This document shows positions 57,025 through 62,713 of a DNA stretch of 64,000 nucleotides, piece by piece. How positions within the stretch are numbered: position 1 is the first letter of the stretch; each line of letters opens with the position of its first letter. The stretch is from Eledone cirrhosa (Eukaryota): assembly GCA_964016885.1 (NCBI GenBank), contig OZ024744.1:123876001-123940000 (forward strand), in the 5' to 3' direction. Position numbers and translations under genes: made by a program. Under the pieces are notes generated by a model that made no database searches, had not been told where the DNA came from, and saw nothing but the letters and a program-made list of their open reading frames with translations.

Positions 57025-57924
57025 GACTGTCTTTCATTAGAAATATGGTAATGAAAGGGTTAATGACATAGACAGTGTCTTTCATTAGAAATTTGGTAAT
57101 GAAAGGGTTAATGACATAGACAGTGTCTTCTATTAGATATATGGTAATGAAAGTGTTAATGAAATAGACAGTGTCTTTCATTAGAAATATGGTAATGCAA
57201 GGGTTAATGACTTAGACAGTCTTTCATTAGAAATATGGTAATGAAAAGGTTAATGACAAAGTGTTTTTCATTAGAATATGGTAATGAAAGGTCTAATGAT
57301 ATAAACAGTGTCTTTCGTTAGAAATATGGTAATTAAAGGGTTAATGAAATAGTGTTTTTCATTAGAAATATGGTAATGAAAGGGTTAATGACATAGACAG
57401 TGTCTTTCATTAGAAATATGGTAATGGAATGATTACATTAGAAATATGGTAATGAAAGGGTTAATGGCATAGACAGTGTCTTTCATTAGAAATATGGTAA
57501 TGAAAGGGTTAATGACATAGACAGTGACTTTCATTAGAAATATGGTGATGAAAGGGTTAATGGCACAGACACTGTCTTTCGTTAGAAATTTGGTAATAAA
57601 AGGGTTAATGACATAGACAGTGTTTTTCATTTGAAATATGGTAATGAAAGGGTTAATGACATAGACTGTCTTTCATTAGAAATATGGTAATGAAAGGGTT
57701 AATGACATAGACAGTGTCTTTCTTTAGAAATATGGTAATGAAAGGGTTAATGACATAGACTGTCTTTCATTAGAAATATGGTAATGAAAGGGTTAATGAC
57801 ATAGACAGTGTCTTTCATTAGAAATATGGTAGTGAAAGGGGATAAGCATGAAAAGGTTTTATATTTCCCGAAGTAATATACATAATTTTAGTCTGCTTAC
57901 ATTGAAGTATATGTAATTAATATG

Positions 57925-57947
57925 TGGGTATGGTATGGTGTGGTGTG
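57925..57947. repeat. Short degenerate (TGGTA/TGGTG)n pentamer tract directly upstream of the 5' LTR
   Basis: TGGGTATGGTATGGTGTGGTGTG. Confidence 0.6.
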
Positions 57948-57948
57948 C

Positions 57949-58198
57949 TGTGGCCGGAGGCTGGTGAGTGCTCGACCGGAAGAGTGTTTGACCAGAAGGG
58001 CGCTTGACCGGAAGGGTGCTCGACCAGAAGGGCCAGCAGGTCTGCCTCTCTCTAGGGTGGTCAGCAAAGCTGGTGGGCGTTAGTTTGGGAGCTCCCAGTT
58101 AACGAGTTGGATTGTATGTACTTGGGAGAGGAGAAACCAGCCTTTGGATTAGCGGTGCCAGCAATAAGCGGTACGTGAAGTAGCTTTTTCTAACCACA
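57949..58198 (+). repeat. 5' LTR (250 bp)
   Basis: TGTGG...CCACA inverted termini. Aligns to 61801-62031 with about 16 substitutions and one 19-bp indel (58161-58179). Confidence 0.95.
57968..58031 (+). repeat. 4 x 16-bp tandem subrepeat in the LTR (also 61820-61883)
   Basis: GTGCTCGACCGGAAGA / GTGTTTGACCAGAAGG / GCGCTTGACCGGAAGG / GTGCTCGACCAGAAGG. Confidence 0.9.
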
Positions 58199-58210
58199 AG
58201 CTATTTCGGC
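58199..58210 (+). promoter_or_regulatory. Putative non-canonical primer-binding site, complementary to nt 1-12 of tRNA-Phe
   Basis: AGCTATTTCGGC abuts the LTR terminal CA. Its reverse complement GCCGAAATAGCT is the 5' end of metazoan cytosolic tRNA-Phe(GAA) as I recall it. No TGG-type PBS within a few nt of the LTR. Confidence 0.6.
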
Positions 58211-58315
58211 ACTGGAAGACGATAAAAAAAAAGAACTTTCTCGAAAACGAAGCTACTGGAGAACAGAGAGGAGTCTGTTGTTTTTTTATTACTTACTGCA
58301 GGACAAAATTAGGAT

Positions 58316-59080
58316 ATGGCTACTAGATTACGAATGAGCGGAGAAGCGATTAGAGATTTTACCGGTGAAGATGATGTTGTTGCCTGGTTGTGAAAAGATC
58401 GGCTGGTCGCAAGCTTACAGAAGATAGAAGATGTGGCTGTCCTCATGGCACTGTACCTCGAAGGGGATGCATTGGCACTCTTGCTAGAGATGGATGAACA
58501 CAGCCAAAGGGATGCGCAAAAGATGGAGAGGCATATGATGGAAGCGTTTGCGGAAGGACCCTTAGTCGCTTTTGCTAAGCTGGCAAGGATTAGATGGAAC
58601 GGTGAACTCGTTGACATTTTTGCAGCGGAAATACGGCGATTGGCCACGTTGGCTGGATATCAGGTGGAATGCGAACGCACGGTGCGGTTGGCGTTCATAA
58701 ATGGATTTCCAAACGACATAGCGGTGAAACTGCAGCAAGTCCTGGGTTACAAGGAAATGGAGATGTGTTCACTGGTGGAACAAGCCCATAACATAGCAGA
58801 AGATGCCAAGAAGAGAGTCACGGCGATAGCAATGACAGAGGCCCAATGCAGCCGGCAGCGAAATGGTGAAAGGGAGGCAACCACGGCATACGGTCGCCCG
58901 TGAACGTTTAGATGTCGTTGTTTGAGGTGCAAGGGCCCGAACATGGCGACAGACTGTAGAGAGTCAAGGCCAGACAAAATATGCTACTGGTATAAGCGAC
59001 CAGGCCACATAGCTACTAGCTGTGACCAGGGAAACGATCCAAGGGGAACTACTGCTTCGGTAGCTGCCCCTTACGAGTAG
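58316..59080 (+). pseudogene. gag: gag (disrupted by in-frame TGA at 58391 and 58901)
   Basis: One frame from ATG 58316 (MATRLRMSGEAIRDFTGEDDVVAWL*...LYLEGDALAL...) to TAG 59078-59080. Two degenerate zinc knuckles: CLRCKGPNMATDC (58919-58957) and CYWYKRPGHIATSC (58982-59023). Confidence 0.88.
59029..59072 (+). promoter_or_regulatory. -1 programmed ribosomal frameshift signal (gag to pol)
   Basis: Slippery heptamer G_GGA_AAC (59029-59035) in gag phase, 5-nt spacer, then stem-loop AAGGGG..CTAC/GTAG..CCCCTT (59041-59072). The -1 frame runs into the protease. Confidence 0.8.
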
Positions 59081-59538
59081 AGGCGCTGCCCATGGTGAAA
59101 GTCTTCGTGACGAGAAAGCCACAGCGAGCCCTCGTGGATACGGGCTGTACGATGACACTGGTAACCGCGGGGGTAGCGCAGAGGTGGAGAGGGAAGAGCA
59201 GCGTAAGGGCAGTCAACGGTAGGAAAATTGAATGCCGAGGTCGCAGCGAGATGTAGATGGCGGTACGTGGAAAGAAAATAAGGCTTTCTGCCATCGTAGT
59301 CGACAACGTGGTGGATGGGATCGGCGTAGTTATGGGCATGGACGCAATTGGCCGTCTAGGAGGCATCACAGTGAACAACGTCGGTGTGTCGTTTGGCGGC
59401 GCCGCATCGGTATGCGCTGTGAGTACGCGACAGGAGAACCAGAAGGCCCACGAGGAGAAATACCCCGCTTACACTGTGCAGGACAAAGACTTCAAGGCCG
59501 TGTTCGATGGGCAACGTTGGGTTGTTGAGTGGTACTGA
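59029..59538 (+). pseudogene. pol: pol: aspartic protease region (stop at 59254)
   Basis: RALVDTGC (catalytic D codon at 59137) and downstream IGVVMGMD in the same frame. Confidence 0.88.
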
Positions 59539-60440
59539 AGGGAGAACCACCAACACTGAAGACCAAAGTTGGCTGCTATCAACACACATTGAAGGGAAAC
59601 ATTAGGAGCGAGTTCGAGCGAGAGGTAGAGAGATGGATTGAGGAGGGCATACTGCTTCCCTGGAAAGAGGAGGTGAAGTGTGGAGCATTGCCGTTAATGG
59701 CGGTGGCGCAACCCATGAAGAATAAGGTGAGACCGGTACTGGACTTTCGGGAGCTGAACAAGCACGTGTCATGCCACACGAGTGGCGAGGTCACGGATGT
59801 CTGTGGGGAAACCCTGCGTGAGTGGAGATGCATGACGGGGGCCTCTGCAATCGTCAATCTAAAGTCGGCATACTTGCAATTACATAGATGAGAAGCTCTG
59901 GCAGTATCAGCTGGTCAGGTATAAGGGCCGGACATATTGCCTGACCAGGCTCGATTTCAGGCTGAGCTCTGCACCGAAGATCATAGCGGCGGTCCTCAAG
60001 ACTATTCTGGGAAAGGCCGACAAGATGAAGAGGGCCACTAACTCCTAGTGGACGAGTCTGTGGTGTCGGCGGCGGAGGTTACGAGCCATTTACAGGGGTA
60101 TGGACTGGCTGTGAAGCCGTCAGAAGCGTTGGAGGGAGGAGCCGCGCTGGGACTTAGGCTACGGCGAGACAGGACGGGCGTGTTAGTATTCCAGAGGGGA
60201 AATGAAGTTCCAGAACTGAGCCCAAGTATGAGTAGGCGGGAGCTTTTCTCGGTGTGTGGAAAGTTTGTGGGTCACTACCCGGTTGCTGGGTGGCTCCAGA
60301 CGGCATGCAGCTATGTCAAGAGACGAGCGGGAGGGGTGACTTGGAGTGACAGAGTGGGAGAGAGGACGGTGGCCATGATGCAGGAGATTGTGGGGAGGGT
60401 GAAGGCCGACGACCCAGTGCGGGGACGCTGGTATGTTCCC
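59529..60440 (+). pseudogene. pol: pol: reverse transcriptase (frameshifted, YxDD lost)
   Basis: KVRPVLDFRELN, IVNLKSAYLQL, then in a shifted frame YKGRTYCLTRLDFRLSSAP. The expected YxDD at ~60045 is absent. Thumb-like SRRELFSVCGK follows. Confidence 0.9.
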
Positions 60441-60860
60441 AAATCGCAGAGCGGGACTGTATGGTTCGATGTCAGCAGCATAGCGCTGGGTGTCACGTTG
60501 GAGATAGGAGGTGTTGAGGTCAAGGATGCAGCCTGGCTTAGGAAGAAGGACGATTGCAACCACATCAATGTGGCCAAACTGGACGCGGTGTTGAGAGGGG
60601 TGAACCTCGCCCTGAGGTGGGGATTGCGCACCATCGAGATTCACACCGACTCGGCTACTGTATTCGGATGGGTGACATCAGTGCTCACCAGTGAGAAGAG
60701 AGAGCGAATGAGAGGGGCGGCGGATATGCTGATAAAGCGCCGCCTGGGAACTTTAGGAGAGTTGGCCACCGAGTTCGACCTGAGGCTGAGCGTAGTTTTC
60801 GTGCCCTCAGAGAAAAATAGGGCGGACGTTTTAACCGGGATGAAGAAAGCCTGGATGGAA
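60441..60860 (+). pseudogene. pol: pol: RNase H
   Basis: VWFDVSSIALG, HINVAKLDAV (E to K), IHTDS and VPSEKNRAD give the D-E-D-D catalytic pattern in ORF 60048-61163. Boundaries approximate. Confidence 0.85.
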
Positions 60861-60899
60861 GCGCTGGAGGATGTAGAAGAGGAGATAGCTGCCGTCTGT

Positions 60900-61783
60900 C
60901 AGCTGACCGAGTCGGATCTGAAAGGGTTGTATGACATGCACCACATGGGAGTGGATAGGACTCTGTTCCTAGTCAGGAGAATCGACTCGGACGTTAGCAG
61001 ACACAGTGTTCAAAGAGTGGTTAGAGGTTGTGTCCGATGTCAGTCCATTGATCCCGCCCCGGGTGTGCACGAAACGGGAAGCCTCCTGGTGGATCACGAC
61101 AAGGAACATACCTCTCAATGGTCGACTGTGGACCGGGACGGATGGCGAAATGGAGGGAGATGAAGACTGGAATGGCCGAGGAAATCACGCGGACATTGAG
61201 AGAGGTGTTCTTGGAGCGGGGCCCTGTGGACGAACTGCTGATGGACAACAGCGCAGCGTTCCGCTCGGAGGCGCTGAGGGAGATGGTCGATGGATGGAAG
61301 GTGGGCCGTTTCTTCAGAGCAGCGTACAGGCCGAGCGGAAATGGAATCGTGGAGGGCACCACCGGACGATCAAAGCAATGGCGGAGCGGGGCCATATCTC
61401 ACCAATGGAGGCAGTGTTCTGGTACAATATGTCCCCTCGGGTTGGACAGGTCGAGGATACGGTGCCACCACAACGGCCAGTGGAGAGAGAATGAATTTGT
61501 GCAGGCGGGCGAAGAAGTCTGGGTTAAGCCCCCAGATGCACGTTGCACATCTCAATGGGGAAGGGGAACGGTGACGGCCGTAAATTCCTAGAACAATGTG
61601 TCCGTGGATGGACTACCACGTCATGTCCTGGATGTCCGTAGAATCACTGTGTCAACGGACTCCGAGGAAGAGGAAACCCAAAGTGCCGCCCCAACACTGC
61701 GGAGATCGCAAAGAAGTAGCAAACCACCAACCTGGACAGCAGACATTCATATGCAGCAGGACGAGGGGGAAATTGATCCTTGA
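60900..61783 (+). pseudogene. pol: pol: DDE integrase (internal deletion, frameshifts, stop at 61589)
   Basis: HHMGVDRT...CVRC zinc finger, YLSMVDCG, LLMDNS, YRPSGNGIVE / HHRTIKAM, FWYNMSP, and C-terminal GEEVWVKPP...WGRGTV...VDGLPRHVLDVR. Confidence 0.88.
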
Positions 61784-61787
61784 GATC

Positions 61788-61799
61788 AGGGGGGGGGGG
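61788..61799 (+). promoter_or_regulatory. Polypurine tract
   Basis: A followed by G11, ending 1 nt before the 3' LTR. Confidence 0.9.
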
Positions 61800-61800
61800 C

Positions 61801-62031
61801 AGTGGCCGGAGGCTGGGGAGTGCTCGACCGGAAGAGTGTTTGACGGGAAGGGCGCTTGACTGGAAGGGTGCTCGACCGGAAGGGCCAGCAGGTCTGCCTC
61901 TCTCTAGGGTGGTCAGCGAAGGTGGTGGACGTCAGTTTGGGAGCTCCCGGTTAACGAGTTGGTTTGTAAGCACGTGGGAGAGGAGAAACCAGCCATTGGA
62001 TTAGCGGTGCCAGTAGCTTTTTCTAACCACA
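61801..62031 (+). repeat. 3' LTR (231 bp)
   Basis: AGTGG (terminal T mutated to A)...CCACA, a direct repeat of 57949-58198. Confidence 0.95.
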
Positions 62032-62547
62032 AAATTCTTTGAAAAGGTTTAATTGACGAACAAATGTCCTGTACCACATTGATCCGCATTAACAAGACTT
62101 TTTAAAAGTACAAAACAGCATTATTACTGCATCACTAAAGATAGTAAAGATACTATAAATATTTGAAATAACAAACCTGTTTTTAGATATTTTCTGCTAA
62201 ATCATTACAGGATGTTAAGAGATAAATACAATATCTTTGTTTATATTTCAGGGAATATGGGTGCGACAAGGAGCAATAGGTTTTATTACTGCTGTGGCTC
62301 ATGTATTGAAAGTTGCAGATGTTCATTGCAACTTAATACCTCGAGTGAGAATGTTCCTAAAACAAAGTGTCCTTCATATTGACCAAAAAGTAAGTTATTT
62401 TCACACATTCTCTACCGTTGAAACCTACCCCTCTCCCCCCGCCCCCTCTCTCTCTAGTAATAATAATAAATGTGAAGACTAAAATCCAAAGAGGGCTCGA
62501 TAAGGATAAATATATATCAAATATATAAGAACCGTAGAGCAAATATT

Positions 62548-62663
62548 TATTAAAATAACAGATTAAAGTTTAAGCAAAGAATCGCTGCTTTCACCCTTAA
62601 CGGGATCTTCTGATCTCGTTAAGGGTGAAAGCAGCGATTCTTTGCTTAAACTTTAATCTGTTA

Positions 62664-62671
<8 letters not shown>
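62548..62671. repeat. Near-perfect inverted repeat: 60-bp arms, 4-nt loop
   Basis: 62548-62607 is the reverse complement of 62612-62671 with one G/T mismatch (62603/62616). Loop TTCT. Confidence 0.95.

Positions 62672-62713
<42 letters not shown>
62669..62713. repeat. (AT)n microsatellite, ~22 units
   Basis: Direct reading. It begins at the end of the hairpin's right arm. Confidence 0.97.

Follow-up and report, generated by a model that had tools for sequence, protein, structure and literature searches.

A primer-binding site complementary to a tRNA 5' end in a lineage of compact animal LTR retrotransposons

Introduction

Which RNA primes reverse transcription in an LTR retrotransposon whose primer-binding site (PBS) matches the start of a tRNA and not its 3'-CCA end? 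The question is raised by a decayed element in the window, i.e. the whole 64,000-nt stretch of Eledone cirrhosa DNA analysed here, for which a first-pass annotation had proposed that minus-strand synthesis may be primed either by a 12-nt fragment from the 5' end of tRNA-Phe or from an internal 2'-OH of the intact tRNA. Three types of LTR primer are listed in PMC6317226, namely the 3' end of a whole tRNA, a self-primer, and a half tRNA produced by a cut in the anticodon stem, while PMC10886601 describes anticodon-loop primers of additional tRNAs.

Results

The element and its boundaries

Nine tenths of the window (1-57830) are taken up by a 48-bp satellite array, and one decayed LTR element begins about 90 nt past its end, with the following features.

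57923..58198, + strand: 5' LTR (TGT...ACA), 276 nt, its start set by paired copies of the same family
58175..58185, + strand: U5 stretch that may form a 10-bp hairpin with the PBS, G-U pairs included
58199..58210, + strand: PBS, exact complement of nt 1-12 of host tRNA-Phe(GAA), with zero gap to the LTR
58316..59080, + strand: gag with zinc knuckles, interrupted by premature stops (from translation and tblastn of gag-pol relatives)
59030..61783, + strand: pol in the -1 frame, with protease, RT, DUF7047 (thumb region), RNase H and integrase
61782..61800, + strand: polypurine tract (PPT), directly before the 3' LTR remnant
61801..62031, + strand: 3' LTR remnant ending in ...CCACA, which lacks ~25 nt at its start and 19 nt internally

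The 5' LTR is placed at 57923-58198 because the LTRs of paired copies elsewhere in the host genome begin with TGTGGG, and the LTR end is set directly after ...ACA by LTR pairs and 5-bp duplications in other copies, which agrees with the boundary that had originally been drawn. CTAACCACA closes both LTRs of the window copy (at 58198 and at 62031), which are 93% identical over 233 aligned nt. The copy has no matching target-site duplication of its own, and its pol carries several stops and frameshifts, with the RNase H motifs partly mutated. Among 29 copies tested, 20 are flanked by duplications of 5 bp (three of these being repeats of one insertion), one by a duplication of 4 bp and eight by none. 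Gag, protease, RT, RNase H and DDE integrase were identified by Pfam, and intact relatives exist; the hallmarks of an LTR retrotransposon are thus all present, i.e. direct TG..CA LTRs, a PPT before the 3' LTR, a duplication of 4-6 bp and the full enzyme set.

Several families in the host genome have a splice-donor-like GGTAAGT in U5, which is mutated in the window copy (58165-58185). The fold-back of U5 onto the PBS is confined to the main families of this host, and neither the U5 hairpin nor the GGTAAG motif is lineage-wide (4/46). Just past the element, at 62543-62676, lies a 65-nt inverted repeat (97% complementary, 4-nt spacer).

The 12-mer and its host tRNA partner

AGCTATTTCGGC occurs once in the window, at 58199-58210, and adjoins the terminal CA of the 5' LTR. 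The more degenerate ACAAGCTATNNNGGC likewise occurs once, which 0/100 shuffles reach, and has 625 matches in the host genome against 76 for the control. The 25-nt start of tRNA-Phe has 210 matches in the 3.0-Gb host genome (control 0), and ARAGORN and Rfam identify these as tRNA-Phe(GAA), the first 12 nt of which are exactly complementary to the site. Pairing ends at nt 12, where tRNA nt 13-15 would require CTG and the LTR has ACA, and the duplex energy is almost unchanged by extension past this point. The gapless position after the LTR, the 12/12 match and its stop at the LTR edge had all been claimed in the first-pass annotation, and all three hold up. The 12-mer is real and lies far beyond chance.

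Host tRNA-Lys(UUU) and tRNA-Thr(CGU) also start with GCC-NNN-ATAGCT, a circumstance that the first-pass annotation had not considered. The first 100 listed matches to ACAAGCTATNNNGGC comprise 85 with TTC in the middle (the Phe form), six with TTT (the form expected from CpG decay) and nine others, with no form fitting the Lys or Thr tRNAs among them, and the partner in this host is therefore tRNA-Phe. Since a GCC-NNN-AUAGCU start is common to other tRNAs (Lys, Thr), it is for this host that the isotype is established. The host tRNA-Lys(UUU) genes (L356-L382) contain an intron of ~19 nt, and a tandem array of ~1.26-kb units with tRNA-Phe and tRNA-Asn genes (L034-L040, G000:C4 from 117.37 Mb) runs to at least 97 copies.

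Conservation within the host genome

The 30 closest host copies carry the 12-mer either exactly (21) or with one transition (9), mostly at CpG. A pattern that avoids the main family hits 194 further places, and among 30 of these several families with unrelated flanks retain the 12-mer. In a motif-blind test, the first 40 of 150 scored DUF7047 matches were taken as anchors and the LTR end was defined by the LTR pair alone. A clean ...ACA end was obtained at 28 of these 40 loci, and all 28 carry the 12-mer (22 exactly, six with one mismatch). The remaining 12 comprise four without a pair, three without CA at the alignment end, and five with a mis-set boundary, which stems from nested repeats, deletions or a mutated end.

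Conservation across other hosts

Protein-anchored scans gave 81 loci, of which 39 have at least 860 nt between the contig start and the protease site, some of these 39 being near-copies. AGCTAT-NNN-GGC is exact in 34 of the 39 other-host loci that span the region, beside unrelated flanks; two more have one mismatch, another two, which represent the same decayed insertion, have two mismatches, and one has a truncated junction. The top 6-mers found de novo, with no prior, spell the motif together with the preceding ACA, and matches are strongly biased to the plus strand (58 against 1 on the minus strand; 1.4 in shuffles). LTR pairs at three loci (L093, L102 and L110) place the boundary after ACA in other hosts too. 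The expectation that the 12-mer would stay fixed at the LTR edge while its flanks diverge is thus borne out in distant families.

A set of 48 non-redundant sites (42 other-host loci and six from this host) shows middle triplets TTC (18), CTA (12), CGC (10), CCC (2), CAC (2) and four singletons. Information amounts to 1.85-2.0 bits at +1..+6 and +10..+12 and to 0.6-1.05 at +7..+9, and at +13 it is down to 0.3, compared with 2.0 bits at +12; the high values are partly due to construction, the sites having been picked by motif, a bias that accounts for neither the drop at +13 nor the free middle. The freely varying +7..+9 face acceptor-stem nt 6-4 of the tRNA, the mature tRNA 5' end coincides with the edge at +12, and +1..+5 face the A-box that is common to many tRNAs.

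On a quick tree of 45 of the 52 loci (seven rows were left out for short matches) the middle triplet changes at least 10 times, compared to 24.5 when shuffled, i.e. the forms are clustered. Four of five assemblies with several loci have a single form and one has both CAC and CGC. With this mixed-form assembly and the clustering on the tree, descent explains part of the pattern. The CTA form coincides with how one tRNA-Phe gene begins; this gene has the eukaryote-type features G20 and G37 and lies on a contig of the viral collection that is not known to stem from the same host as the CTA elements. The CGC, CCC, CAC and TCC forms were matched solely to phage or bacterial tRNAs of mixed isotype, and for the CCG form no tRNA match was found. 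Given these non-host or missing matches, covariation with the host is shown in one host and suggested for one variant. A survey of tRNA-Phe in viral contigs yielded 65 loci with 42 distinct genes, one of which matches a PBS form; 80 of at least 120 further viral-contig loci are phage or bacterial tRNAs of mixed isotype. A search for the host tRNA in three bacterial bins with element contigs gave background matches only, with 0 tRNA genes in 30 loci.

Some loci stand apart. At L146:372-383 the PBS has a C facing tRNA nt 4, a form that corresponds to the start of many animal tRNA-Lys(UUU), and the LTR there ends in AAA; a primer switch is possible. A contig from a bacterial bin (L149-L151) contains tandem units of decayed elements and tRNA-Ser(UGA) genes and is evidently eukaryotic DNA, L145-L148 being similar contaminants. 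The contig at L108 has no LTR and opens (1-30) with a sequence resembling an integrase end that is joined midway into the PBS, through misassembly or deletion. Two PBS sites ~4 kb apart are found at L088, L090 and L105, being either tandem copies with a common LTR or collapsed repeats.

Other primer sites

A conventional PBS would begin with TGG next to the LTR, and the first-pass annotation had seen none. This is the case in young paired copies as well, and no TGG-type PBS occurs at any of the 28 pair-defined host LTR ends, nor a TGG within 5 nt of the LTR end at any of the 48 sites. The element nowhere contains more than a 7-nt fragment of a canonical 3'-CCA PBS for tRNA-Phe. A TGG at +15 in the family of the window copy was considered as a PBS and rejected, as it diverges between subfamilies. 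No second tRNA-pairing site near the PBS is common to the 18 TTC families; one 7-mer near the PBS is found in 6 of 12 related CTA families, likely by descent.

Proteins and lineage placement

The pol relatives carry PF23088 (DUF7047) in elements of about 4 kb. Relatives whose source is named come from Argonauta, Aplysia, Petrolisthes, Trinorchestia, Macrobrachium, Amphibalanus, Trichuris, Trichinella and Nymphon, so that molluscs, crustaceans and nematodes are among the hosts, and a profile search at E<=1e-30 recovered 1329 representatives, a number that also counts fragments and remoter relatives. The PBS is a mark of these compact LTR retrotransposons as a lineage and no peculiarity of a single copy. 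Protease, RT (Y[IVML]DD), RNase H (D-E-D-D) and integrase retain their catalytic residues in 45-46 of 46 relatives. A sister group (P0332, P0334, P0335, P0341, P0347), with the sponge Sycon among its named members, also carries DUF7047 but differs in its integrase and in having a single, longer gag-pol. By the main alignment, no relatives were found in viral contigs, and none for this sponge-type group either.

The domain order is PR-RT-RH-IN with a single RNase H, the spacing from YxDD to the first RNase H aspartate being 144 aa, with neither a tether domain nor a second RNase H. A model of RT-RH (residues 130-608) matches the tether-less RT-RH of CaMV with Z 21.4 (rmsd 4.8, 414 aligned). In the fold search with RT, the CaMV, MMLV, foamy and Ty3 enzymes are tied (Ty3 Z 20.4), and the lineage RT, 12-19% identical to solved RTs, has a viral-type fold; Ty3 RT is absent from its 51 PDB sequence hits at E<=10, and a search of the ESM Atlas returned mixed RT families.

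RNase H is matched by RVT_3 in 38/38 relatives, by PF17917 in 1/38 (E 0.01) and by PF17919 in 0/38, while ordinary Gypsy elements of the same genome score E 1e-26 to 1e-31 on the Gypsy-type RNase H profile. Folded alone (pLDDT 91), the domain comes closest to RNase H1 of Halobacterium (Z 17.3, rmsd 2.1, 122 aligned), followed by Sulfolobus (Z 14.9) and LC11 (Z 14.8), so that archaeal-type RNases H1 outscore retroviral, caulimoviral and Ty3 domains, with Ty3 at Z 8.9 over 87 residues. Because Z-scores favour short single-domain targets, and only 87 residues of the Ty3 chain were aligned, the modelled resemblance to archaeal-type RNase H1 over the Gypsy profile is a lead only and no sign of activity. 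Sulfolobus RNase HI reportedly cleaves double-stranded RNA. With the RNase H profile, nothing significant was found among PDB sequences.

Discussion

Comparison with known systems

In canonical 3'-CCA priming (retroviruses, Ty1, Ty3, BEL/Pao) the PBS likewise adjoins the 5' LTR and the PPT the 3' LTR, with TG..CA ends and 5-bp duplications; the present lineage, however, binds the opposite strand of the acceptor stem and has no TGG. Half-tRNA priming, known from Drosophila copia, Ty5, Osser, Bryco, Bianca and fungal Helenus/Copia, shares with it a tRNA truncated at the 3' side and the lack of a TGG (PMC6317226, PMC10886601). There, however, the PBS faces the anticodon stem-loop, whereas the present site lies opposite nt 1-12 of an elongator tRNA and the primer would be only 12 nt long; those elements are moreover Copia, with integrase before RT, in contrast to PR-RT-RH-IN. 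The closest analogy, which goes beyond the earlier reading of the locus (as does the use of the site as a lineage marker), is the RNase H cut of Tf1, where the element's own RNA has its initial 11 bases paired to the PBS, and RNase H cleaves between bases 11 and 12 (PMC7175516). Tf1/sushi elements (Schizosaccharomyces pombe) thus resemble the lineage in placing a 5'-terminal RNA on the PBS (11 nt in Tf1, 12 nt here). Their complement lies in their own RNA and LTR, whereas here it lies in trans on a host tRNA and the LTR has none; and the edge cut known from Tf1 RNase H is a putative one in the lineage, whose catalytic residues are intact in relatives. No chromodomain was found in the four pols scanned.

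With respect to classification, domain order and the tether-less RT-RH spacing are those of Ty3/Gypsy (Metaviridae), but the Gypsy-type RNase H profile does not match, and membership of Gypsy is doubtful. Pao-specific Pfam domains (PF05380 and kin), as in BEL/Pao, are absent from four pols at E<=0.05, and a search of the host genome for a BEL outgroup gave one weak broken hit. Retroviridae, Lokiretroviruses and Odin have a tether and a second RNase H, unlike the lineage with its 144-aa spacing. Troyka/Kuafuorterviruses are an overlooked LTR lineage, mainly of aquatic invertebrates, that also has PR-RT-RH-IN and no tether (PMC12440569, PMC11673190). Assignment to them was rejected, as they have CG..CG ends, 3-bp duplications, xADD and a length of 5-6 kb, compared to TGT..ACA, 5 bp, YIDD and ~4 kb here (same sources); the words PBS, tRNA and primer do not occur in the text of PMC12440569 that was searched. 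The lineage fits none of the superfamilies tested, and it would work like Tf1 priming and like truncated-tRNA priming while being a member of neither, nor of Troyka. Priming from a 5'-terminal tRNA site, which the first-pass annotation did not know to have been described, was not found in the literature searched (which excluded Repbase Reports, Dfam and most subscription journals) either.

How the primer might be made

From the sequence evidence, it is very probable that a piece of the tRNA 5' end primes minus-strand DNA synthesis. In the particle, the PBS would invade the acceptor stem and D-stem and pair with tRNA nt 1-12, for which the computed energies are favourable (about -19 to -21 kcal/mol for the PBS:tRNA duplex versus ~9 kcal/mol to open nt 1-12, for unmodified RNA). 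A cut of the RNA between U12 and C13, where the duplex ends, would follow, in analogy to the cut between bases 11 and 12 of Tf1's own RNA, and RT would extend the new 3'-OH into U5. Synthesis of plus-strand strong-stop DNA would subsequently terminate at the 5' end of the primer, and this would account for a conservation edge exactly at tRNA nt 1. This last step need not hold, as Ty1 and Ty3 inherit their PBS and do not copy it from the primer (PMC7472051). A 2-nt spacer separates the G-tract from the 3' LTR, so that a primer ending at nt 10 or 11 is possible as well.

That the element's own RNase H releases the 12-nt primer is, by analogy with Tf1, the leading proposal, at about even odds. 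The alternative that a host nuclease makes the primer, be it as a finished 12-mer or by way of a longer 5' fragment or half from which an unpaired 3' tail is trimmed off up to the duplex edge, is unlikely but to be taken seriously, as all the PBS evidence fits it equally well, 5' tRNA fragments and halves are common (PMC7472051) and half-tRNA priming is known in Copia lineages (PMC6317226, PMC10886601). Against it, described 5' tRNA fragments measure 16-35 nt (PMC7515703), and the constancy of length and register from phylum to phylum suggests a ruler encoded by the element. Of the two modes first suggested, a 12-nt fragment is the best reading of the sequence, while priming of branched RNA-DNA from the internal 2'-OH at U12 of an intact tRNA, as in retrons, has gained no support and seems quite improbable. 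It would require no cut and agrees with the sharp edge at nt 12, but the lineage RT has a viral-type fold and nothing points to branching. In retrons, branching involves a G and a clade of RTs dedicated to it.

It is also conceivable that the 12-mer binds a tRNA or protein for packaging, translation or integration, with priming achieved otherwise, and an ATG within 20 nt after the PBS in 38 of the 48 sites would suit a role in translation. Such a role is nevertheless improbable, since the 12-mer sits at LTR+1, the obligatory position of a PBS, with edges that coincide with the mature tRNA 5' end, and there is no other PBS candidate. Self-priming by element RNA, of the Tf1 type or through a U5 hairpin, with the tRNA match being incidental, draws on the U5 of the window family, which can pair with the PBS over 10 bp, G-U pairs included. 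It is largely refuted by the upstream 200-400 nt of 43 families, where the self-complement of the PBS does not exceed the shuffled level (mean longest Watson-Crick run 5.4 versus 5.5) and a run of 10 occurs in none, while the identical 12-mer stands beside unrelated LTRs, and it is therefore very hard to credit. A different small RNA with a 3' end of this sequence would also do without a cut, but the variable positions coincide with tRNA acceptor-stem nt 4-6, we know of no small RNA with such a 3' end, and this origin is exceedingly improbable.

The priming by a tRNA 5'-end piece may then be extended to a complete scheme, in which an undescribed animal LTR lineage at the level of a superfamily uses a fourth mode of priming, the tRNA-Phe 5' end being captured, the duplex cut by an archaeal-type RNase H and a 12-nt primer freed. 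This scheme as a whole is put forward tentatively, its probability falling somewhat short of even.

Implications

PBS finders that look for complements of the 3'-CCA end would miss the lineage. If the proposed priming is true, a 5'-terminal 12-nt tRNA primer would be a fourth type of LTR primer, kept across several animal phyla, and very short 5' tRNA fragments would gain a defined job. The lineage would, in that case, escape the silencing by 3' tRNA fragments (3'-tRFs) that is aimed at ordinary primer sites, and the self-priming of Tf1 and priming by tRNA would be bridged, as two faces of one chemistry.
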